Below are positions 21,044 to 30,373 of a stretch of DNA of 40,729 nucleotides, in pieces. Both the position numbers and the translations under genes were made by a program. Positions within the stretch are counted from its first letter, which is position 1, and each line of letters opens with the position of its first letter. Source of the DNA: Candidatus Woesearchaeota archaeon (GTDB lineage: Archaea; Nanobdellota; Nanobdellia; SCGC-AAA011-G17; JACPNG01). The DNA is taken from NCBI GenBank assembly GCA_017609525.1, contig JAFCDT010000001.1:1-40729 (forward strand), read 5' to 3'. Below the pieces are notes generated by a model. It ran no database searches. It saw only the letters and a list, made by a program, of their open reading frames with translations, and had not been told where the DNA came from.

Positions 21044-21431
21044 GGCCAAACAATAAGATAATAACACCAAGAACAATAGCAGAATCTGCAATATTAAAAA
21101 CAGGCCACACTTTAAAATCCAAGAAATCAACTACATTGCCTAAAAAAACCCTATCAATCAGGTTCCCTAACAAGCCCCCCATTAAAAGTCCAAAACCTAT
21201 AAAATGCTCCTTATTTTTGTAATAATATCTCAAAAGAAAAAAGAAGATTACCAGGCTAAGAAATATCAGTACCAGGTTCATTCCCTTAAACATTCCAAAC
21301 AAGGCACCACTATTTAGGTTATAATTTATTGAAAAAAATCCAAAATCCTTGTGCACATTTTTAAACAAAAATTTAGTTAACTGGTCAAGAAAAACTATGA
21401 TTGCTGTTATTGATAAAAATTTATATTTCAT
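21030..21431 (-). CDS. lspA: Lipoprotein signal peptidase (signal peptidase II)
   Basis: 133 aa, 4 TM. NSGALFG, GGLLGNLIDR and VVDFLDF..WPVFNIADSAI match the LspA conserved blocks, including the catalytic Asp contexts. Confidence 0.85.
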   Translation of the reverse strand: MKYKFLSITAIIVFLDQLTKFLFKNVHKDFGFFSINYNLNSGALFGMFKGMNLVLIFLSLVIFFFLLRYYYKNKEHFIGFGLLMGGLLGNLIDRVFLGNVVDFLDFKVWPVFNIADSAIVLGVIILLFGLRKK

Positions 21432-21922
21432 AATTGTTGCATATTCAAAAATGATTTAGCTTGATTAAAAAACTCATAGGTCTGTTCTTTTAATTCTACA
21501 TTATACCTTACATACCTGTCTCTCATAACAAGTTTTTCCCATGTTTCTTTAATGAACTTGACCAAGAAAGGACTTTGCCATCTCTCATCCCAGTCAACTT
21601 TTAAATAAGATTTAACACTAATTGTTATCTTTCCCTTGCAAGCAGATTTATTTTTAACCTTGACCTTTTTAATATTCTGTAATTTAATGCCTACATCAAT
21701 AAAGAATTTAATATATTCATCAACCTTTCTTTCAGAAGTCCATCCAATCTTGGTGTTTTTAGACTCATCCCCTCTAACCTGCTCAGCATGATCTTTTTCA
21801 AAAAGGTCATAATTTTTCCTATTAAACCAGTCTCTCATAAACTGATAGAATTTATCCAATTCAAAAACCGATTCCTTGGTAAAGGTTATTGAAGGGTACA
21901 CCACCCAGTCTATCTCTGACAT
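21428..21922 (-). CDS. Uncharacterised ~165-aa family, tandem paralog A
   Basis: 164 aa with no signal peptide. It shares ELDKFYQFMRDWF..KNYDLFEKD and SERKVDEYIKFFIDVGIK blocks with paralog C. ATGA overlap with lspA. Confidence 0.7.
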   Translation of the reverse strand: MSEIDWVVYPSITFTKESVFELDKFYQFMRDWFNRKNYDLFEKDHAEQVRGDESKNTKIGWTSERKVDEYIKFFIDVGIKLQNIKKVKVKNKSACKGKITISVKSYLKVDWDERWQSPFLVKFIKETWEKLVMRDRYVRYNVELKEQTYEFFNQAKSFLNMQQL

Positions 21923-21961
21923 AATATCCCCTTGTGTTTCGATAAATATAATACTTTCGGT

Positions 21962-22462
21962 TTAAATATATTGGTCAAAATAATTCTTCATCCACTCTCT
22001 CAATTCGTTTGTTTTATTGTACAAATCCAAGATATGGTCGTCAATTCTTTTAGGATTAACAAACCTTTCCCATATTTTCCTGATTGATCCTTGTGGTCCT
22101 TTTTTAATAATGCTAGACCCGATTTTGATATCAAAATCTCCTTTAAATCTTTTTGATTTTTTGCCTTCATATTCTATTTCAATCTCCCTTACTCCAACCA
22201 AGATCCATTTTATCTTTATCAAATAATGAAAATATTTTGTTTTTTTCTTAACTGCTGACCAGAAAATATTAATGGTTTTTGCGCCATCTGGAAATTCCTG
22301 AACATCATACTTGTCTTCATTAAAAGGACTATCATAGCCATTGTGGTCAAGCCACCTTTTAACATCCCTGTAAAAATATTTTAAATCAAGAATTCCAACA
22401 TGCCTAACCCTGAACTCTTTAACAACCTCAATCCTTTCTTCTTGTTTTTCAGCCATCTTCAC
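21962..22462 (-). CDS. Uncharacterised ~165-aa family, tandem paralog B
   Basis: 166 aa. It has the same length and block order (DLKYFYRDVKRWL..NGYD..FNEDK; KKKTKYFHYLIKIKW) but is the most divergent copy. Confidence 0.65.
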   Translation of the reverse strand: MKMAEKQEERIEVVKEFRVRHVGILDLKYFYRDVKRWLDHNGYDSPFNEDKYDVQEFPDGAKTINIFWSAVKKKTKYFHYLIKIKWILVGVREIEIEYEGKKSKRFKGDFDIKIGSSIIKKGPQGSIRKIWERFVNPKRIDDHILDLYNKTNELREWMKNYFDQYI

Positions 22463-22467
22463 CTCTT

Positions 22468-22965
22468 TTAAACATGATACAACTCTAAGACCTCTTTGAT
22501 TGCTTCATGAATCCCCACCATATCTCCATATATTTTTGCTGCATAAAATTCTGGTAACTTGAATCTAATAATATATTGATTATAAATTTTCATCAGAAAT
22601 TTCCCCCATTTATTATATGCAAATTCATTTTTATAATCTAATTTCATATCTCCCTTAACAATCACTTCAATAATGCCCCTATCTAATAGTTTGCCTTTAT
22701 ATTTAACTTTTTTAGTATAGTAAGATTCTATTTCAACAGTAAGTACAAACATAACATAACCATCTACTTTTCTCTCGCCCTTAGCTTTAAAATTAATTTC
22801 CACTCCTTTCTTTTTTATTTTAGTAATGTTTTTGTCTTCAAAATAATCATATTGGCGGGCTTCTATAAATTCTTTTACAGTTTTATACACTTTATTAATA
22901 TCATAAATCCCCTCCACCATTATTTTCATTCCCCTTGTAGGGTGGATAGACACGGTCTCAACCAT
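22468..22965 (-). CDS. Uncharacterised ~165-aa family, tandem paralog C
   Basis: 165 aa. DINKVYKTVKEFIEARQYDYFEDKN and GERKVDGYVMFVLTVEIE align with paralog A. Confidence 0.7.
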   Translation of the reverse strand: MVETVSIHPTRGMKIMVEGIYDINKVYKTVKEFIEARQYDYFEDKNITKIKKKGVEINFKAKGERKVDGYVMFVLTVEIESYYTKKVKYKGKLLDRGIIEVIVKGDMKLDYKNEFAYNKWGKFLMKIYNQYIIRFKLPEFYAAKIYGDMVGIHEAIKEVLELYHV

Positions 22966-22969
22966 ACTA

Positions 22970-23458
22970 CTATATCTCCTCCTTATTCTTATAAGTATTT
23001 CGGTTAAACATCCAAAAAATAAAAATAATTAAAATAATTAAAATTAAAACTAATCCCAACCAGAAATAGTTCCTTTCTGGCTTGGGATTTTCAATAGTTA
23101 GTAATTCTTCGTTTTCTTTATATATAACAATCTCTTTAGCTTCTTCAAAATAAGGAACCAGTAAACCAAAATCAACTTTATTTAATACAATAACATCTCC
23201 TCCTTTGCTTGAAGAATCAACATAAATTCTGTTAGGGACATCAAATCTAAAAGAATAGATTTTTGCATTTTTAGAGGAAACAACAGCCAGATAATATTCT
23301 CCTTCCTGAATTTTCCTATCAGGGTAATATCCAAAGAGATTATATTTATTATTTAAAGAAAGTTTACCATCTTCGTAATGTAAACTAACCAGAACAACAT
23401 CACTTGCAACTACGAAAAAACTGCAAACCAATAATAAAAATAATAATTTAAATTTCAT
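22970..23458 (-). CDS. Secreted beta-rich protein with N-terminal signal peptide and C-terminal TM anchor
   Basis: 162 aa. N-terminus MKFKLLFLLLVCSFFVVAS, C-terminal YFWLGLVLILIILIIFIFWMF. 4-nt overlap with the upstream peptidase gene. Confidence 0.65.
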   Translation of the reverse strand: MKFKLLFLLLVCSFFVVASDVVLVSLHYEDGKLSLNNKYNLFGYYPDRKIQEGEYYLAVVSSKNAKIYSFRFDVPNRIYVDSSSKGGDVIVLNKVDFGLLVPYFEEAKEIVIYKENEELLTIENPKPERNYFWLGLVLILIILIIFIFWMFNRNTYKNKEEI

Positions 23459-24492
23459 TTGTAAACCCCTATTCTCTTTAATATTTCATTTTTACTCACT
23501 TCATTAAATTCATTTAAGCTAAAAGGTCCAAAAGATCTCATTATTGAATCGTCACTAGACCTATAATAACTTTTCAGACTGCAGCCTAAGAATTTATTTT
23601 CCCACTCTGGGTTCTCTTGGCAATTTGCTGCATTAACCTTGTCTAAGCCTTCAACAAGGTATTCGTCTGCTAATTTTCCCAAAATATGACCAAATTCATG
23701 TAAAACAACCAGATTATCATCTGCGGTATTTATAGCCATAGTCCTTCCAAAAGAGCTACTCCTTGGAACATCCAACAATTGTTTAGATAAGATTATAATA
23801 TAATCATTAGGGCACCTAGCAGCTAATCGTTTAGCCTCAAGATCATCACAAATAATAAAATCTTCAGTGTTACAATTAATCTTTTCATCAACAAAATAAA
23901 AATTAAAACTGTCCTTATTAGAGCTTAATGGCTCCTTAGAAAACAAAGTATCAATATACTCATTTACCTTAGAACTAAAGTCTTCATTCTTCAGATTGTG
24001 ATTCAAAAACACAACATCAATATTATTACCTTTATTATATAAAACAGACTTACATTCTTGTTCTGATTTTGTTAATTTAATCTCAACATCTTCTTCTTTT
24101 ATAATCTCAAGTTCTACAATTCCATTAACCTCACTACAAATAGCATTATTTTGAACATTAAATCCTCCCTCTAACTTATAAAAATGTCCTGGAATAAAAT
24201 AAATTCCCTTGCCTTGATAAATAAAATCTTGACTGTCTCCTTCATCAGAAGCAACACAAACTTTTTTAATTCTGTTTGGCAAAGAAAAACTTACAATTCT
24301 AGAACCTTCTTCTAATCCCTTATATTCATCAACTATATTTCTTAAACTCAAGGCAATATTAGTTAACTGAGCTGTTTCTGCGGTTTTCTGGCTTTTCTTA
24401 ATCATTATAAATCCAAAAACCAATATGACAATAACAAGTAGCAAAATAAATATATAAATAAACATATGAGAATTAATCTGACCTCTTTTCAT
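23455..24492 (-). CDS. Membrane-anchored zinc metallopeptidase, M64 (IgA-peptidase)-like
   Basis: 345 aa. HEFGHILGKLADEY matches the HExxHxxxxxxDEY signature I associate with M64. The N-terminal MKRGQ + 22-residue hydrophobic segment is a signal anchor or possible class III (prepilin-like) signal. Confidence 0.6.
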   Translation of the reverse strand: MKRGQINSHMFIYIFILLLVIVILVFGFIMIKKSQKTAETAQLTNIALSLRNIVDEYKGLEEGSRIVSFSLPNRIKKVCVASDEGDSQDFIYQGKGIYFIPGHFYKLEGGFNVQNNAICSEVNGIVELEIIKEEDVEIKLTKSEQECKSVLYNKGNNIDVVFLNHNLKNEDFSSKVNEYIDTLFSKEPLSSNKDSFNFYFVDEKINCNTEDFIICDDLEAKRLAARCPNDYIIILSKQLLDVPRSSSFGRTMAINTADDNLVVLHEFGHILGKLADEYLVEGLDKVNAANCQENPEWENKFLGCSLKSYYRSSDDSIMRSFGPFSLNEFNEVSKNEILKRIGVYK

Positions 24493-24506
24493 TAAAATTA
24501 AAAATA

Positions 24507-24848
24507 TTAGCCTTTATTTAAAGATTTTGAATTAGGATAATTCTCTCTTGCCCTTAATACAGCCCCATTATATTCTTCAGTAGCTGGTTGAACAACAATC
24601 TGAAACCCATCATGGTATATTGAAGGCTCAACCAATTTAATTACTTCTTCAAGAAACTCCTCATCCCCTTGTCTTGGGTGGATTGTTAATATCTTTCCAT
24701 GCAAAGTAACATCCGAGTTCTCAAGGACAGCACATCTTTTACTGCACGATAGAAATGCGTCTCTAGAACATAAAGGACTATCTCGTATCTTTTCTTCTAA
24801 CAAACCAAGCAATTCTTCAATTCTTTTTACCGCTGGGTCATCTATCAA
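24507..24848 (-). CDS. Hypothetical protein (three clustered Cys)
   Basis: 113 aa with a TTG start and GGAGGG 11-12 nt upstream. It lies 14 nt upstream of the peptidase gene. No motif recognised. Confidence 0.45.
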   Translation of the reverse strand: MIDDPAVKRIEELLGLLEEKIRDSPLCSRDAFLSCSKRCAVLENSDVTLHGKILTIHPRQGDEEFLEEVIKLVEPSIYHDGFQIVVQPATEEYNGAVLRARENYPNSKSLNKG

Positions 24849-24907
24849 TATCCAAATCCCTCCTCAAAATTAAGAAATTTTGATCATATAAAAACATTAT
24901 TATACTC

Positions 24908-25225
24908 TTATCTATAAAACAAAGAAACAATTTTTTCCAAACCATACCCCACTAAAGAACCTATTGAGGAAGTAACCGGCCACATTTTAACACCAACCCA
25001 TAAACCTCCAAACCCCCCCACGCCTTCCAAAGGCAACTCTAAAAAAGAATCATTTAGATTAAGATAATCAACTAAGAGATCTATACTTTTATAACCCAAA
25101 AAACTGCAACACCCAACACCAATTAAAATTCCTAAATTAGAACCCAAATACGCGCCACCCCCCATCCCCTTCCTACATTTTGTAGCTAAATCAGCCAATC
25201 CCATAAGAAATACTATAACAATCAT
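24908..25225 (-). CDS. Gly-rich small membrane protein (glycine-zipper-like), hypothetical
   Basis: 105 aa with GMGGGAYLGSNLGILIGVG and GVGGFGGLWVGV segments. It is the first gene of the minus-strand array. Confidence 0.45.
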   Translation of the reverse strand: MIVIVFLMGLADLATKCRKGMGGGAYLGSNLGILIGVGCCSFLGYKSIDLLVDYLNLNDSFLELPLEGVGGFGGLWVGVKMWPVTSSIGSLVGYGLEKIVSLFYR

Positions 25226-25266: not shown

Positions 25267-25307
25267 AGTAAAAACATTTATAAAGAAATTAACCTAATAA
25301 AATAGTA

Positions 25308-26777
25308 ATGGCAAAGATTGCTCAAAAAGCATTTAAGGGTGTTTTTTCTGGTTTAATTAAAAAATCAGAAGAAAAAAAAGAGGAAACTAAGTTTGAAGAC
25401 AGAGATAAGTTGCTGGGAAAAAGAATTGACCAGTGGCATTTCCATATGGTTATACAAAAACCCGGCGGCCTTGAAGAAACATATTTCTGGTTACTTAATT
25501 ATTTAAGAAGCGGGCATCTTGGAGGGTATGAAATAACAAAAACTTCAGATGTTTTCACAGCAACCGAATCCTCAAGTTATTTTGGTGATCTAGGTACAAG
25601 AAAAACACAATTACAAGATAAAGTAGCGCAATATCTGGGTACAATAGGGAACATGTCAAAAGCTCTTTTTCAAATAATCAGAGAACTAAGAATCATAGAT
25701 GAAAGATTAACTTATTATGATGAAAGCAAAAAGCAATGGTCTAAAGATAAAGAACAGCACGAAGAGGGAGAGGCAGCAGAGGTTGCTTTAAAGAGCATAT
25801 GGGTGGATATGGTTGAAGGGGGCGCAAAGAATCCAAACTCTGTTACATCCTTGTCCACACAGGTGGGTTTTATAACTCTACCAGACTTTTTCTATAAAAT
25901 TAGTGCAAAATCTATTAAAGATGTTGATAAGAGTGTGGATAAATTAAAAAAAGAGGGAGTAAACAGGAAGGTAAGGGAAATTCTAAAAAGAAAACTATTC
26001 CAGTATTATACGTGGAAGGAAAAAACAGAAAAAGAAATAAGGAACAGAAGAAATTTTACATTAAAATATCTAAGGCAACATTACTATTCTATGAAAACCT
26101 ACATAAGATGGATTAAACCCTACCTAAGACACATAAATAAATTAGAACTTGCACATTATCAAAACGATCCAGAACTTGTAACTGCTTTTGAAACAGCCAA
26201 AATAGAAGTAGAGGTTATTGCAACAAAAAAAACATTTGAGGCTGAGACACCCTTGGGCTTAGTAAAAGCACCCTACCAAGAAGTTATGCCATGTATAAGA
26301 TTACAATTCAAATACACAACAATCCCACAAATGGCCTTTCAGCAAGGCTATCAAAAAGGAGCAATACACGCAGGAAAACTAGAAGTAATAATGGAGGCTT
26401 TTACACCAAAAGCCAAAGACATAAAAAAATATGAAGAATTAAAAGAAAAAGAAGATTTTGAAATAATTGAAGCATTAGAAGCATCGATGATGTCTTTGGG
26501 AGATGAACTCAAACGCTACCTAGAAGAAGCAGGAGAAAAATTTGATGAAGAAAAAAAAGAAAAAGAGCCAGAAAAAGATACTATGCTATCTCCTTTCATA
26601 GGAATATTCAAGGGATTTAAAGAATTGATTCCTAAAAGAGGGAAAAAAGAAGAAACTAAAAAAGAAGAAAAGAGTAAATTTATTAGTCAAGAGGGATCAC
26701 AGGCTAAAGGAGTAAATAGAGACCTCTTTGTTTTATACCACATATACAAAAAAGCCCATGGCATGTTAAGTTGGTAG
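25308..26777 (+). CDS. Hypothetical 489-aa protein (P1) with amphipathic basic termini
   Basis: Long ORF with complex composition. N-terminus MAKIAQKAFKGVFSGLIKK and C-terminal LSPFIGIFKGFKELIPKRGKK look like amphipathic helices. No catalytic or NTP-binding motif recognised. Confidence 0.7.
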   Translation: MAKIAQKAFKGVFSGLIKKSEEKKEETKFEDRDKLLGKRIDQWHFHMVIQKPGGLEETYFWLLNYLRSGHLGGYEITKTSDVFTATESSSYFGDLGTRKTQLQDKVAQYLGTIGNMSKALFQIIRELRIIDERLTYYDESKKQWSKDKEQHEEGEAAEVALKSIWVDMVEGGAKNPNSVTSLSTQVGFITLPDFFYKISAKSIKDVDKSVDKLKKEGVNRKVREILKRKLFQYYTWKEKTEKEIRNRRNFTLKYLRQHYYSMKTYIRWIKPYLRHINKLELAHYQNDPELVTAFETAKIEVEVIATKKTFEAETPLGLVKAPYQEVMPCIRLQFKYTTIPQMAFQQGYQKGAIHAGKLEVIMEAFTPKAKDIKKYEELKEKEDFEIIEALEASMMSLGDELKRYLEEAGEKFDEEKKEKEPEKDTMLSPFIGIFKGFKELIPKRGKKEETKKEEKSKFISQEGSQAKGVNRDLFVLYHIYKKAHGMLSW

Positions 26778-27310
26778 ACCTTAAAAAATATTTAAAGGAA
26801 CTTAAAAAACTCCATCCTGTTGAAAGATTAGATAAACTAGAAGCACTTATGAATGTTGTCTCAAAGGATAAAAAACTAAGCAAAGAAGTTCAAAAAGAAT
26901 TAGATAAAACAATTAAAGAACTACAAGACCTAAGGTTATGGAAAGGAACAAGATCCATAGGTTTAAGTGCTAGGGTAATAAAGCCTACTTCAGAAAAACC
27001 AACAGAAGAAAATCTAGAAGAAAAAATAATAGAGACTCCTCCCCCAAAAGAAGAAAATAAATCTCTTAAAATTTATTCACCAGAATCAGAAAAAAAACCA
27101 GAAGATGATTACCATATTGGACCAAAAAGTGAAGAACCATTATATAAACAGTCAAATAACCACGAAGAAACACAATATCAACAGCAAGATACTACTCAAG
27201 AACAGGAAAAAAACTTTTTTAACCCCCCTTCGCTTTCAAAACAAATAGATAACTATCAAACTGCACCAAAAGAGGAAAGAAAAAAGAAAAAAAATGAATC
27301 TAGGTACTAG
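26771..27310 (+). CDS. Hypothetical protein (P2): short helical N-domain plus P/E/K/Q-rich disordered tail
   Basis: 179 aa. The TTG start overlaps the P1 stop by 7 nt (alternative ATG at 26849). The 3' end overlaps the P3 start by 17 nt. Confidence 0.5.
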   Translation: MVDLKKYLKELKKLHPVERLDKLEALMNVVSKDKKLSKEVQKELDKTIKELQDLRLWKGTRSIGLSARVIKPTSEKPTEENLEEKIIETPPPKEENKSLKIYSPESEKKPEDDYHIGPKSEEPLYKQSNNHEETQYQQQDTTQEQEKNFFNPPSLSKQIDNYQTAPKEERKKKKNESRY

Positions 27311-29108
27311 TTATTGGCATTCTTTGGATAGAGTAAGCAAAGATCTGGAATTATCTGGAAAGGATTTTGCAATTAGTCATGGTATTGGAGATGTAAAACA
27401 AGGGCTTAAAGCAAATATCTTTGCTGGTGCTTCTCAAATAGAGCTTGGTTTTATGGGCCAAGGCAAGGGTTCAAGGTCACAGCCAACAGGCGTAACTCCA
27501 GAAACATTTGGGAAAACAGAAAGAGAAGAAATGAGAGAAATGGCCAGGGTTAACGAAGTTAAGATTTCTACTCATGCATCAGCAAATGTAATGGGTTTTG
27601 CAGGTTATAATGAACAAGGATTTAGAGATGAGTTAAGAGAACGTGCACTTCATGAAGTGAAAAGAGCAGTAGATTTTGCAGCTGATGTTGCTCAAGGTGG
27701 ACCAATAGTGGTTCATACAGGAGAGTTCCCCAGAGACGTTGCAACAAAATACTATGATGAAGAAAAAAAGATGGGGTTACAGCTATACCCAGAAGAAAAA
27801 GAAAAGGGGATAGTGCAATTCGTGGATGAGGAGACAGGAAGAATAATTGCTTTAAGAAGAGATACAAAAGTTTGGTTAGAAGAAAGAGATCCGGAAACAG
27901 GTCATCCAATACCCGAACTTGATAAAAATAAAGAACCAACCGGAAGGTATCATTATCAAAAAAGAGATTATAAATATTTTGAAGATTTAGCAAAAGAAAA
28001 ACAAAATGGTAAAAACCCGGCACAACTTTTTCTTGAAGCGCATCAGCAAAGGGATATAGAGATGCAACGTGGAGAAGAAAAAAGATTTTATGCTGAAGCA
28101 GAAAAGATAAAAGAAACCATTGACAAGATTAAAAGAATCAAAGAAGAATATGTGGGGGGAGATAAAACAAAAAATCAAATTGCTGTAGATTTATTAGAGA
28201 CAGAACCCGGTGTACTTCGTTCAGAAAAAGAAGCAGAAATATTAAGAAAAGATCCAGAAAGATTTGCAAATGAAAAACTAAGAGAATTAGAATTGGCTTA
28301 TGATTATTACAAAGATGCTTCATTAGGTTATGGAAAAAGAGCAGTAGAAATGGAAGACTCCCTTAATAAAATTGTTCCAATAGAAGATTATGCACTAGAA
28401 AGAACTGCAGACTCTATATCTCAAGCCGCAATGTATGCTTATGAAGTAGAAAAAAAGAAAAAACTAAAAGAGCCTTTATTTATTGCACCAGAAAATGTAT
28501 TCCAAGAGCAATATGGAAGCCATCCTGAAGAATTAAAAAAGATAATTGTAGAATCAAGGGAAGAAATGGCTAAAAAACTAGTACAAAAAAAACACATATC
28601 TGAAAGAGAGGCAAAAAAAATAGCCTCAGAACACATTAAAGCTACATTTGATATTGGTCACGCACATAACTGGAGAAAGTATTTTGATGGAGATGACAAA
28701 CAATATCATAAATGGTTACAGGGTCAGGTAAAAAAATTAGTTGATGAAGGGATTATTGGTCATGCTCATATTTCAGATAATTTTGGGTACTATGATGAAC
28801 ATGTTATACCAGGAGAAGGAACTGCTCCAATAAAGGAATTCCTTGCAGAGCTAAACAGAAAAGGAAAGTTTAAGGGCCAAATGGTAGTAGAACCTGGAGG
28901 GCAACCAGATCCAAATCGGCCTTTTGATGTTCTAAGGGGGATGTGGAGGACAGCAGGATCACCAATGTACAGGATAGATGGAACATCACAATCATGGACA
29001 GATATCGAGAATTCCTATTTTGGAAGAACAGGAAGCCCAACATATCTTGTTGGTGATATAGCACCTTCAAAAGATTGGACATTATGGAGTGAAACAGCAT
29101 TAGAATGA
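27294..29108 (+). CDS. Endonuclease IV (Nfo)-like / xylose-isomerase-like TIM-barrel protein (P3) with large helical insertion
   Basis: 604 aa. STH94AS, VVH141TGE, APE400N, FD453IGH456, H492ISD, YD501EH503VIPGEG and VVE533PGG align with E. coli Nfo HDSY/HPGS/ENTAG/DTCH/HLND/DRHHSLGEG/LETI metal-ligand motifs. About 240 extra residues lie between H141 and E400. Confidence 0.7.
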   Translation: MNLGTSYWHSLDRVSKDLELSGKDFAISHGIGDVKQGLKANIFAGASQIELGFMGQGKGSRSQPTGVTPETFGKTEREEMREMARVNEVKISTHASANVMGFAGYNEQGFRDELRERALHEVKRAVDFAADVAQGGPIVVHTGEFPRDVATKYYDEEKKMGLQLYPEEKEKGIVQFVDEETGRIIALRRDTKVWLEERDPETGHPIPELDKNKEPTGRYHYQKRDYKYFEDLAKEKQNGKNPAQLFLEAHQQRDIEMQRGEEKRFYAEAEKIKETIDKIKRIKEEYVGGDKTKNQIAVDLLETEPGVLRSEKEAEILRKDPERFANEKLRELELAYDYYKDASLGYGKRAVEMEDSLNKIVPIEDYALERTADSISQAAMYAYEVEKKKKLKEPLFIAPENVFQEQYGSHPEELKKIIVESREEMAKKLVQKKHISEREAKKIASEHIKATFDIGHAHNWRKYFDGDDKQYHKWLQGQVKKLVDEGIIGHAHISDNFGYYDEHVIPGEGTAPIKEFLAELNRKGKFKGQMVVEPGGQPDPNRPFDVLRGMWRTAGSPMYRIDGTSQSWTDIENSYFGRTGSPTYLVGDIAPSKDWTLWSETALE

Positions 29109-29911
29109 AATTTGAAATTAAAAAAAGAAAAAGAGAGATAAAATATCCAACAGAAGAATTTGAAATAGCAAGAAAATTTGCTAAATTATTGTATAAAGAA
29201 TTTGGAGACTTGCTAAGAGCAGTAATTCTCTTTGGCTCAGTAGCTAGGGAAAAAATGGCTACAGAAAAAGACATAGATGTCTTGATAATTCTTGATGATG
29301 TAAGAATAGTTTTAACAAAAGAACTAATTCAAACATATAGAATAATCTTAGAAAAAATAGTAGCAGAAGTTGATCCAAGAAGACTCCACATTCAGACTAT
29401 GAAATTCACAAGCTTCTGGGAATATGTAAGGGTAGGAGATCCAGTAGCAATTAACATACTAAGATATGGTGTAGCATTAATAGATACAGGGTTTTTTGAT
29501 CCACTACAGGCATTACTGGATGAGGGAAGAATAAGACCAAGCAAAGAATCTATTTACACATATTTTACCATGGCCCCCTCTAGTTTGCATCGGTCAAAAC
29601 AACATGTATTAACTGCAATGATAGACTTATATTGGGCAACAATAGATGCAGCACATGCAGCATTAATGCAAATGGGTGAAATTCCCCCAAGTCCAGAGCA
29701 TGTTGCAGATATGCTTGAGGATAAACTAGTCAAGAAAAAATTAATAAAAAAAGAATATGCAACAATAATGAGAAGACTATACTATATCTTTAAACAAATA
29801 ACACATAGAAAGATTTCTGAGATTGATGGAAAAGAATATGACATATATCAAAAACAGGCAACAAGGTTTGTAAAAGAGATGCAAAAATTTATAGAAAAAA
29901 AGAAAAAATAA
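29105..29911 (+). CDS. Nucleotidyltransferase (MNT/KNTase-like) with C-terminal helical HEPN-like domain (P4)
   Basis: 268 aa. LFGSVAREKMATEKDIDVLIILDD is the pol-beta-type GS...DxD motif. ATGA overlap with the P3 stop. Paralogous to the central part of 37011-38768. Confidence 0.75.
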   Translation: MKFEIKKRKREIKYPTEEFEIARKFAKLLYKEFGDLLRAVILFGSVAREKMATEKDIDVLIILDDVRIVLTKELIQTYRIILEKIVAEVDPRRLHIQTMKFTSFWEYVRVGDPVAINILRYGVALIDTGFFDPLQALLDEGRIRPSKESIYTYFTMAPSSLHRSKQHVLTAMIDLYWATIDAAHAALMQMGEIPPSPEHVADMLEDKLVKKKLIKKEYATIMRRLYYIFKQITHRKISEIDGKEYDIYQKQATRFVKEMQKFIEKKKK

Positions 29912-29923
29912 AAGTAACTAGAT

Positions 29924-30373
29924 TTATACTCTAGCTACTCCGTTTCTTGTTTCTGCTCCTTGAGTGTTTGCTGCATAGATTCTGTAAGCAGCTGTTCTAC
30001 TCATGTTTCCTAAGTTATCTGGATCTGATCCTCTATAGGCTGATCCTATAATACTTATTTTATTTCTTTGTAGCATTTCAGTAGCATATTGTTCCGCTTC
30101 ATCAAGATTGCCTTGCTGAAGTGCATCAAAAAGTCTAACCAAAGTTTCATTAGTTCCTCTCATATATGTTCTGAAAACCTCTAGCCTCTGAGCATCATCT
30201 CCAATTGCATCATACAAAGCATCAAATTGTGCTCTTGCCGCATCAATATATGCCTGACCTAAATCTCCTTGAAGATTACCATCAACCATATCAGCTAGGT
30301 TGCCAAATAATCTCCATCCTGCAGAAGTTAAACCATTATGTGCTTGATTTATTGTTTGTTCGTCAAATGGCAT
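29924..30373 (-). CDS. Lys-poor, Ala/Gly/Asp/Gln/Arg-rich helical hypothetical protein
   Basis: 149 aa with 12 Arg and 1 Lys. GGAGG lies 12 nt upstream and TATA-like TTTATATAT about 50 nt upstream of the ATG. Visibly higher GC than its flanks. Confidence 0.65.
   Translation of the reverse strand: MPFDEQTINQAHNGLTSAGWRLFGNLADMVDGNLQGDLGQAYIDAARAQFDALYDAIGDDAQRLEVFRTYMRGTNETLVRLFDALQQGNLDEAEQYATEMLQRNKISIIGSAYRGSDPDNLGNMSRTAAYRIYAANTQGAETRNGVARV

Follow-up and report, generated by a model that had tools for sequence, protein, structure and literature searches.

What is the function of four overlapping genes from a Woesearchaeota archaeon, if two of their products have no relatives outside their own families? 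This question is raised by positions 25308-29911 of contig JAFCDT010000001.1, which belongs to the assembly of a Candidatus Woesearchaeota archaeon (GCA_017609525.1). The whole stretch of DNA that was analysed (1-40729) comprises 40,729 nucleotides and is referred to as the window; the four genes and their products are designated P1, P2, P3, and P4. Few uncultured DPANN archaea are as widespread as the Woesearchaeales, and the majority of the genes that define this lineage are uncharacterised. The initial annotation had likened the gene run to systems of defence, abortive infection or nucleic-acid repair. According to the analysis reported here, P1-P4 very likely constitute a conserved, vertically inherited core operon of Woesearchaeales-type DPANN archaea. 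As to its role, we tentatively propose that the products form a multi-subunit complex of a phosphoesterase and a nucleotidyltransferase (NTase), which would act on the end or on a lesion of a polynucleotide.

The list of open reading frames (ORFs) contains an uninterrupted run of four genes on the plus strand, coding for proteins of 489, 179, 604, and 268 amino acids:

25308-26777, plus strand: P1, 489 amino acids, start codon ATG
26771-27310, plus strand: P2, 179 amino acids, start codon TTG, overlaps the P1 stop by 7 nucleotides
27294-29108, plus strand: P3, 604 amino acids, start codon ATG
29105-29911, plus strand: P4, 268 amino acids, start codon ATG, ATGA overlap onto P3

The initial annotation had described these genes as linked by consecutive stop/start overlaps. 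Direct reading of the junction sequences confirmed overlaps of 7 nucleotides between P1 and P2, 17 nucleotides between P2 and P3, and 4 nucleotides (ATGA) between P3 and P4. Identical overlaps are found in the closest relative, locus L087, whose P1 is 81% identical. The four genes form a real operon, and the cluster is probably co-transcribed. The GC content of P1-P4 and their GC content at third codon positions (GC3) equal those of the neighbouring genes and therefore give no indication of a recent transfer.

One genome per GTDB species was scanned for relatives of P1. At least 544 species-level genomes were positive, and all of them belong to one archaeal order. Homologues of P1, P3, and P4 with a named source come from Woesearchaeota, Nanoarchaeota, and Nanoarchaeia metagenome-assembled genomes (MAGs); a few are labelled 'uncultured Methanosarcinales'. 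For the analysis of gene linkage, 80 loci were fetched, and a locus was counted as eligible if it contained enough sequence alongside. In 56 of the 67 eligible species-level loci, P3 follows P1 on the same strand at a distance of at most 4 kb. The median gap between the two genes is ~550 nucleotides, which leaves room for a gene of the size of P2. Of 52 loci, 38 have P4 downstream of P3, often at a distance of 8-55 nucleotides. The genes thus co-occur in other genomes, an outcome that leaves the initial annotation unrefuted on this point, and the neighbourhood search that had been proposed together with the initial annotation uncovered a conserved cluster at a housekeeping locus and no defence island.

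The gene calls before P1 give the order HSP20, NDK, the ribosomal proteins L24e, S28e, and L7Ae, GluRS, PUA-domain protein, methyltransferase, and LspA. On the 172-kb contig of L087, the cluster is followed by genes for a PPDK/PEP-synthase-type enzyme, an ABC transporter, and the ribosomal proteins L10e and L35Ae. The neighbourhood of P1-P4 is a housekeeping region and not a variable island. A cluster of P1, P3, and P4 of the Woesearchaeota type was also seen in MAGs titled 'uncultured Methanosarcinales archaeon' (L047, L049, L054, L055, L058, L066, L068, L069, L075, L077, L080, and L085), which suggests that these bins are taxonomically mislabelled.

P3 is matched by PF01261 at 2.6e-15. Its AlphaFold2 (AF2) model, which has a predicted local distance difference test (pLDDT) score of 84.8 and a predicted template modelling (pTM) score of 0.81, contains eight barrel strands (25-29, 48-52, 90-94, 136-141, 395-400, 450-453, 488-493, and 529-532). 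On the basis of this model and, for the tail, of the alignment, P3 is divided as follows:

27345-27734, plus strand: N-terminal half-barrel of P3, residues 18-147
27735-28469, plus strand: insertion of ~245 residues between strands 4 and 5, residues 148-392
28470-28961, plus strand: C-terminal half-barrel, residues 393-556
28962-29105, plus strand: tail of 48 residues, conserved but disordered, residues 557-604

The insertion is predicted to consist of a beta subdomain (residues 160-224) and a helical bundle (226-389). The idea that it is a copy of P1 was rejected, as the comparison of the alignments by hhalign yielded a probability of 0.16. In a distant clade (L083, 11590-18372; L072, 7604-12907), P3 comprises 729-740 residues.

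The mean column identity of the P3 family is 43%. Candidate metal ligands are H94, H141, E400, D453, H456, H492, D501, H503, and E533; they are kept in 43 of 43 sequences, except for H503, which is kept in 41. Their predicted locations are the ends of strands 3-8, a site three residues past strand 6, and the loop after strand 7. The order is that of the E. coli Nfo ligands H69, H109, E145, D179, H182, H216, D229, H231, and E261. In the Nfo sequence used for this comparison, all nine ligand positions checked out. The presence of all metal-ligand motifs of endonuclease IV (EndoIV), as claimed in the initial annotation, is therefore borne out to the extent that nine candidates appear in the same order and at the same predicted strand positions. 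P3 and EndoIV (E. coli Nfo; M. tuberculosis End, 5ZHZ) also share the fold of the same TIM-barrel superfamily and the local motif H-x-x-D-N ... D-x-H-x-x-x-G-x-G. In contrast to EndoIV, P3 possesses the giant insertion, and neither the sequences nor the profiles of the two match significantly.

Among proteins of solved structure, MJ1311 from Methanocaldococcus jannaschii (PDB 3WQO, 'D-tagatose 3-epimerase-like protein') is closest to P3 in sequence, with a profile E-value of 2.3e-10 that applies to the C-terminal half-barrel only. Single-sequence E-values are 9e-4 and 1.8e-4, and a PDB sequence search with an insertion-free P3 returned MJ1311 alone; neither this search nor the profile search of the PDB yielded an EndoIV chain. 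Both proteins share the motifs FDIGHA and H.H..DN.GY.DEH...GEG as well as the barrel Glu, and their N-terminal His motifs align as well. MJ1311 is reportedly a protein that keeps the nine zinc ligands of EndoIV. It has 293 residues and lacks an insertion, whereas P3 has ~245 extra residues and the conserved 48-residue tail. MJ1311 has been listed as a predicted EndoIV homologue of M. jannaschii (PMC2770678). None of the NCBIfam epimerase models reaches its cut-off with P3. Judged by its sequence, P3 is an MJ1311-like barrel that has a putative ligand set of the EndoIV type and a giant insertion specific to its lineage, and it is not a member of the Nfo family. It represents a new architectural variant of the MJ1311-like branch of the barrel superfamily, a branch that is itself uncharacterised. 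Of the earlier description as an Nfo-like TIM barrel with a giant insertion, the fold and the ~245-residue insertion stand; the Nfo label is too specific, given that MJ1311 is the closest relative and 3-epimerases are the best-matching folds.

P4 is matched by PF01909 (9.5e-8; 32.8 bits versus a cut-off of 21) and by PF18765 (1.2e-6, above cut-off). The NTase domain spans approximately residues 17-125, where an N-terminal helix precedes the motifs G44 S45, D56xD58, and D64 D65. These six residues do not vary among 30 homologues. As was proposed previously, P4 is a Pol-beta-type NTase, and its GS/DxD motif is intact. The mean column identity over these 30 homologues is 69%, compared to 41% for P1 and 43% for P3. 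In total, 2659 homologues of P4 were found, and the best 120 are 61-89% identical. The C-terminal region (approximately residues 126-268) is very conserved as well; for these ~140 residues, there is no Pfam match and nothing was found in the PDB or NCBIfam. The spacing of R163-x3-H167 deviates from the canonical HEPN motif (R-x4-6-H). In the PDB and NCBIfam, weak matches to KNTase (kanamycin nucleotidyltransferase), ANT(9), streptomycin NTase, MNT-like proteins, HalB, and MntA cover only ~60 residues of the NTase core and stay far below the cut-offs of these families. P4 shares with KNTase, ANT(4'), and MNT-type enzymes the N-terminal helix and the G-S and DxD motifs, and with KNTase the size and the two-domain layout. 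It differs from the NTases of resistance and toxin-antitoxin systems in its far stronger conservation (column identity of 69%) and its fixed chromosomal position, and the similarity is confined to the ~60 core residues. P4 constitutes a new subfamily within a known fold, and a highly constrained one.

For P1, no match was found in Pfam, NCBIfam, PADLOC, or PHROGs, and a comparison with PDB sequences gave nothing, neither by phmmer with the single sequence nor by profile. A Pfam scan of 39 aligned family members yielded scattered chance matches only. More than 730 homologues were found, all from Woesearchaeota or Nanoarchaeia and none with a Pfam match. A search of 1.84 billion representative proteins with the family profile returned 727 clusters, 309 of them below 1e-30, which represent the family itself only; among the 150 best clusters, most sequences are full-length (440-560 residues) and some are fragments. 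On the basis of this search, P1 is a closed, order-specific family; no sequence or structural relative was found elsewhere. The alignment contains 40 invariant columns and has a mean column identity of 41%. The strongest motifs are TA.E.SSYFG, LFQI.RELRI.DERL.YY, W.D.VEGGAKNP.SV, LPDLFF, WLKPYLRN, and IPQMAYQQEYQRGAIH.G.

The AF2 model of P1 (pLDDT 73, pTM 0.54) has as its core a seven-stranded beta-sheet that is formed by residues 44-85 and 297-365. An inserted long helical stalk is predicted to consist of the helices 95-144, 148-170, and 220-280. The core is followed by a disordered linker and by C-terminal helices with a pLDDT of ~80-89. The loops 85-93 and 342-351 are highly conserved, yet disordered in the model. 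A Foldseek search of the PDB and BFVD with this model gave no match at E < 1e-3. The earlier description of P1 as an unknown protein agrees with blank results from Pfam, NCBIfam, PADLOC, PHROG, the PDB, and Foldseek. In a subclade of homologues (P0043, P0050, and P0053), the disordered C-terminal linker carries a helical insert of ~45 residues (..VIEVMEKTG..KEKAIEALKKAG..; alignment columns ~536-585). A UBA/SAP-like identity of this insert was suspected by eye and is unconfirmed, and Pfam was blank; only weak matches were seen in the PDB, namely the Ku70 SAP domain (E 0.017) and archaeal NAC (E 0.19).

P2 has no family match in Pfam, NCBIfam, or PHROG, and its PADLOC matches are at chance level. 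A helical N-terminus is followed by a low-complexity tail rich in E, K, P, and Q. When this P2 was used for tblastn in the related loci, no matches were found. By means of an iterative search, the ORFs of 137-213 residues which 37 loci have between P1 and P3 were recognised as one family. Its members share the N-terminal motif L.P.ER...L..LL, a Trp, the motif 'LE..V', and a C-terminal Tyr. Only the TTG start of P2 retains the motif L.P.ER...L..LL of these 37 homologues, which supports this start codon. P2 is missing where the gap between P1 and P3 measures 13-106 nucleotides. The protein is disordered and evolves rapidly, with conservation of an N-terminal motif, and the previous description as a short helical domain plus a P/E/K/Q-rich tail is matched by the family from the 37 loci.

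How might these products act together? The persistent linkage of P1-P3(-P4) and the presence of conserved segments that are disordered in the models (the P3 tail, the P1 loops, and the P2 motifs) argue for a joint action. Conserved segments that are disordered in monomers are typical partner-binding regions. With regard to a functional or physical coupling of the four proteins, we consider the arguments evenly divided. In the proposed complex, P3 would be the catalytic phosphoesterase, and nine invariant or nearly invariant His, Asp, and Glu residues would copy the trinuclear-metal site of EndoIV and MJ1311. This nine-residue site suggests the hydrolysis of a phosphoester, and the ~245-residue insertion and the conserved disordered tail may serve as docking arms. 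P4 would be an active Pol-beta-family NTase, as is suggested by its GS/DxD motif, and would transfer a nucleotidyl group either to the product or to a partner. P1 may be a scaffold or a substrate-binding subunit with a new fold made up of a sheet and a coiled coil, and P2 may be a disordered adaptor. A polynucleotide end or lesion would be cut or cleaned by P3 and then extended or tagged by P4. The operon may serve lineage-specific housekeeping DNA or RNA end-processing or repair, in loose analogy to bacterial and archaeal PolX with its PHP domain. There, a trinuclear-metal phosphoesterase, which cleans abasic sites and DNA ends, is paired with an NTase of the Pol-beta superfamily. The analogy is a functional one only: PHP has its own fold and is not an EndoIV-like barrel, P3 and P4 are encoded by separate genes next to P1 and P2, and P4 lacks the finger, thumb, and 8-kDa domains of PolX.

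The processing of a polynucleotide end is weakly favoured because of the P3 site, the P4 motif, and the basic pI values of P1 (9.2), P2 (8.5), and P4 (9.5). A nucleic acid as the substrate of the P1-P4 system is nevertheless doubtful. It is unlikely that the cluster encodes a Woesearchaeales-specific machine (P1 scaffold, P2 adaptor, P3 phosphoesterase, P4 NTase) for essential nucleic-acid end-processing or repair by an undescribed route, which possibly replaces a lost canonical pathway.

Several observations weigh against a complex that acts on polynucleotides, and three of them explain why it is favoured only weakly: the scans with Pfam and NCBIfam detected no nucleic-acid-binding domain in P1-P4, the folds most similar to P3 are those of epimerases, and KNTase-like NTases mostly modify small molecules or proteins and not polynucleotides. 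The best Foldseek matches of P3 are D-psicose/D-tagatose 3-epimerases and UlaE (E 1.6e-4 to 1e-3, probability 1.0, target TM 0.6-0.72, where TM denotes the template modelling score), and EndoIV from M. tuberculosis follows at rank 27 with an E-value of 0.054 over 126 columns only. An insertion-free profile of P3 gave no significant alignment with E. coli Nfo, either global or local (hhalign probability 0.2), and none of the NCBIfam nfo models matched at E ≤ 1. MJ1311, moreover, is said to lack the DNA groove of EndoIV. At the level of the operon, the linkage of P1-P4 is strong but not absolute; tight translational coupling is typical and not obligatory, since toxin-antitoxin pairs or other genes can separate the four genes in relatives. 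Part of the synteny may also reflect the generally conserved gene order of small genomes.

The main rival of the polynucleotide complex draws on some of the same observations. It is a small-molecule pathway, in which P3 is a metal-dependent isomerase or epimerase of sugars or polyols, similar in type to ketose 3-epimerases, P4 O-nucleotidylylates a hydroxyl of the product (for example an envelope or glycan precursor) in the manner of KNTase and ANT enzymes, and P1 and P2 are accessory or localising proteins. We assign a low likelihood to it. The Foldseek ranking of P3 speaks for it, as does the Glu-Asp-His-Glu metal site of ketose 3-epimerases and of UlaE (L-xylulose-5-P 3-epimerase), which has counterparts in E400, D453, H492, and E533. 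Furthermore, the nearest solved relatives of P4 are kanamycin and streptomycin nucleotidyltransferases, and genes of the LspA/envelope type adjoin P1 in many genomes. However, the identity of P3 to the ketose 3-epimerases is only 8-15%, and P3 has five extra invariant His/Asp residues, the insertion, and the tail. These five residues, H94, H141, H456, D501, and H503, would be surplus for a single-metal epimerase, and they correspond exactly to residues of a trinuclear phosphoesterase site. P1 and P2 display no enzyme-like or membrane features, and the 69% column identity of P4 together with the conserved disordered segments suggests macromolecular partners. The distant clade, finally, loses the adjacency of LspA and keeps P1-P3.

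A second explanation for the gene cluster is synteny that does not reflect a shared function. Unrelated lineage-specific genes would have stayed together due to a slow decay of gene order and compact packing, and the overlaps would result from compaction. This is quite unlikely. It is consistent with a wider block (PUA protein, LspA, P1-P4, and PPDK) that is syntenic in many relatives, with the occurrence of P1 that has no P3 nearby, for example in L002, and with the insertion of MazEF, a membrane protein of 227 residues, a regulator, a methyltransferase, or a DUF483 protein between the genes of some relatives. In order to control for background synteny, the position of LspA was recorded. It is the divergent upstream neighbour of P1 in only 31 of 59 eligible loci. 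Where LspA is not adjacent (23 loci), P3 still follows P1 in 20 cases, at a P3 identity of 26-45% (mostly ~30%); the link between P1 and P3 therefore outlasts the surrounding synteny. Moreover, the same order on one strand with short gaps is the rule, and the overlaps of 7, 17, and 4 nucleotides recur in L087.

Individual loci illustrate how the cluster can be interrupted. A MazE plus PemK pair, identified from precomputed Pfam assignments, lies between P1 and P2 in L004 (9642-10200) and L021 (11462-12020), and in L017 (5526-6148) the pair at this position looks PIN/VapBC-like by eye. In the distant clade represented by L083 and L072, P3 and P4 are ~4 kb apart, and the DNA between them codes for a PH0730-like regulator, a DOT1/RrnaAD-like methyltransferase, and a DUF483 protein; before P1, there is a gene for a Kef-type Na/H exchanger.

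It is very unlikely that the cluster encodes a membrane or cytoskeletal module, in which P1 shapes or tethers a membrane as a BAR-like coiled coil with amphipathic terminal helices, and in which lipid head groups or a partner protein are modified at this site by P3 and P4. Among the weak Foldseek matches of P1, there are indeed many BAR/F-BAR domains and the EmrA adaptor, besides STAT. With a probability of at most 0.38, a TM score of at most 0.2, and a root-mean-square deviation of 15-40 Å, they represent a generic likeness among long-helix proteins. The N-terminal segment of this P1 is amphipathic (hydrophobic moment 0.42, net charge +5), the C-terminal helix (LYxVFKKxHGML) is conserved in the family, and LspA and membrane proteins are neighbours. 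However, the N-terminal extension is absent in 12 of 39 P1 homologues. The amphipathic basic helices that had been noted at both termini of P1 are thus present here as regards the N-terminal one and conserved as regards the C-terminal one, and the former is not a feature of the family. No transmembrane segment or signal peptide was read from the translations of P1-P4, and the C-terminal helices of P1 are modelled confidently.

The assignment to a defence, abortive-infection, or toxin-antitoxin system, in which a nuclease-fold effector would be combined with an MNT/HEPN-like regulator and sensors, is extremely unlikely and was rejected together with a mobile-module reading: although the composition superficially resembles nuclease-plus-NTase defence modules and P4 gives generic NTase matches to the PADLOC candidates PDC-S09 and PDC-M05A as well as weak ones to HalB and MntA, the scores for MntA (22.2 bits versus a cut-off of 60) and HalB (23.4 versus 190) are far too low, P1 has no PADLOC match and those of P2 and P3 are at chance level, the window and the gene calls contain no HEPN toxin or HalA neighbour, a scan of IMG/VR viral contigs for P1 found no relative, there is no PHROG match, and the cluster is found with native GC3 in at least 544 species genomes at a fixed locus flanked by ribosomal, GluRS, NDK, LspA, and PPDK genes. 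The column identity of 69% in P4 is the opposite of what is seen in patchy, fast-evolving defence genes and therefore argues against this framing.

No pathway or system with the composition of P1-P4 has been described in the literature searched or is contained in the model libraries, which bears out the corresponding claim of the initial annotation for the literature and for PADLOC. The novelty rests on the absence of matches and not on a demonstrated mechanism; conserved 'dark' operons that are confined to one lineage are frequent among DPANN genomes. Solving this cluster could show what the orphan MJ1311-like branch of the TIM-barrel superfamily does, and it could reveal a housekeeping process that is specific to reduced, probably symbiotic cells.

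Two signals flank the operon:

25277-25284, plus strand: TATA-like box TTTATAAA, ~24 nucleotides 5' of the P1 ATG, read from the sequence
29911-29941, no strand assigned: 12-bp inverted repeat in the 12-nucleotide gap region where P4 and an ORF of 149 residues converge, from a scan for terminator-like elements

The distance of TTTATAAA to the ATG fits the usual spacing between TATA box and start in archaea, and the element is likely the archaeal promoter of a leaderless or short-leader P1 transcript. The inverted repeat 3' of P4 is a consensus match only and may represent a terminator hairpin or a shared 3' end. A bacterial promoter scan of the window was at chance level; it makes use of a bacterial model that is not applicable to archaea. 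The window contains no tRNA gene and no Rfam family at the gathering threshold.

Between LspA and P1, the window contains three paralogues of ~165 residues, a membrane protein of 162 residues, an M64-like peptidase, and two small proteins. The paralogues (164-166 residues) are arranged in tandem at 21428-22965 on the minus strand and have no match in Pfam, NCBIfam, or PHROG. Homologues that are 22-43% identical lie by LspA and P1 in about one third of the related loci, in one to three copies; the family may therefore be part of the conserved neighbourhood of P1. The remaining genes, at 22970-25225 on the minus strand, code for the 162-residue membrane protein, the M64-like peptidase (345 residues, with an N-terminal hydrophobic segment), and two proteins of 113 and 105 residues. 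A tblastn search of the 85 loci L001-L085 gave no match for these proteins. L087 has a gene for 163 residues and a PF09471 (Peptidase_M64) gene in the equivalent positions and lacks the two small genes. The block at 22970-25225 has the appearance of an insertion between LspA and P1 that is specific to this lineage. The statement in the initial annotation that a block of ~9 kb has no housekeeping assignment is thus overstated, as part of this block appears to be that insertion.

On the other side of the operon, the convergent ORF at 29924-30373 on the minus strand codes for 149 residues. Its product is rich in Ala, Gly, and Asp and acidic (pI 4.6), which is unusual for this AT-rich genome; its GC3 is native. 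Neither a family match nor a tblastn match in the related loci was found for this ORF. In relatives, its position is taken by different small ORFs.

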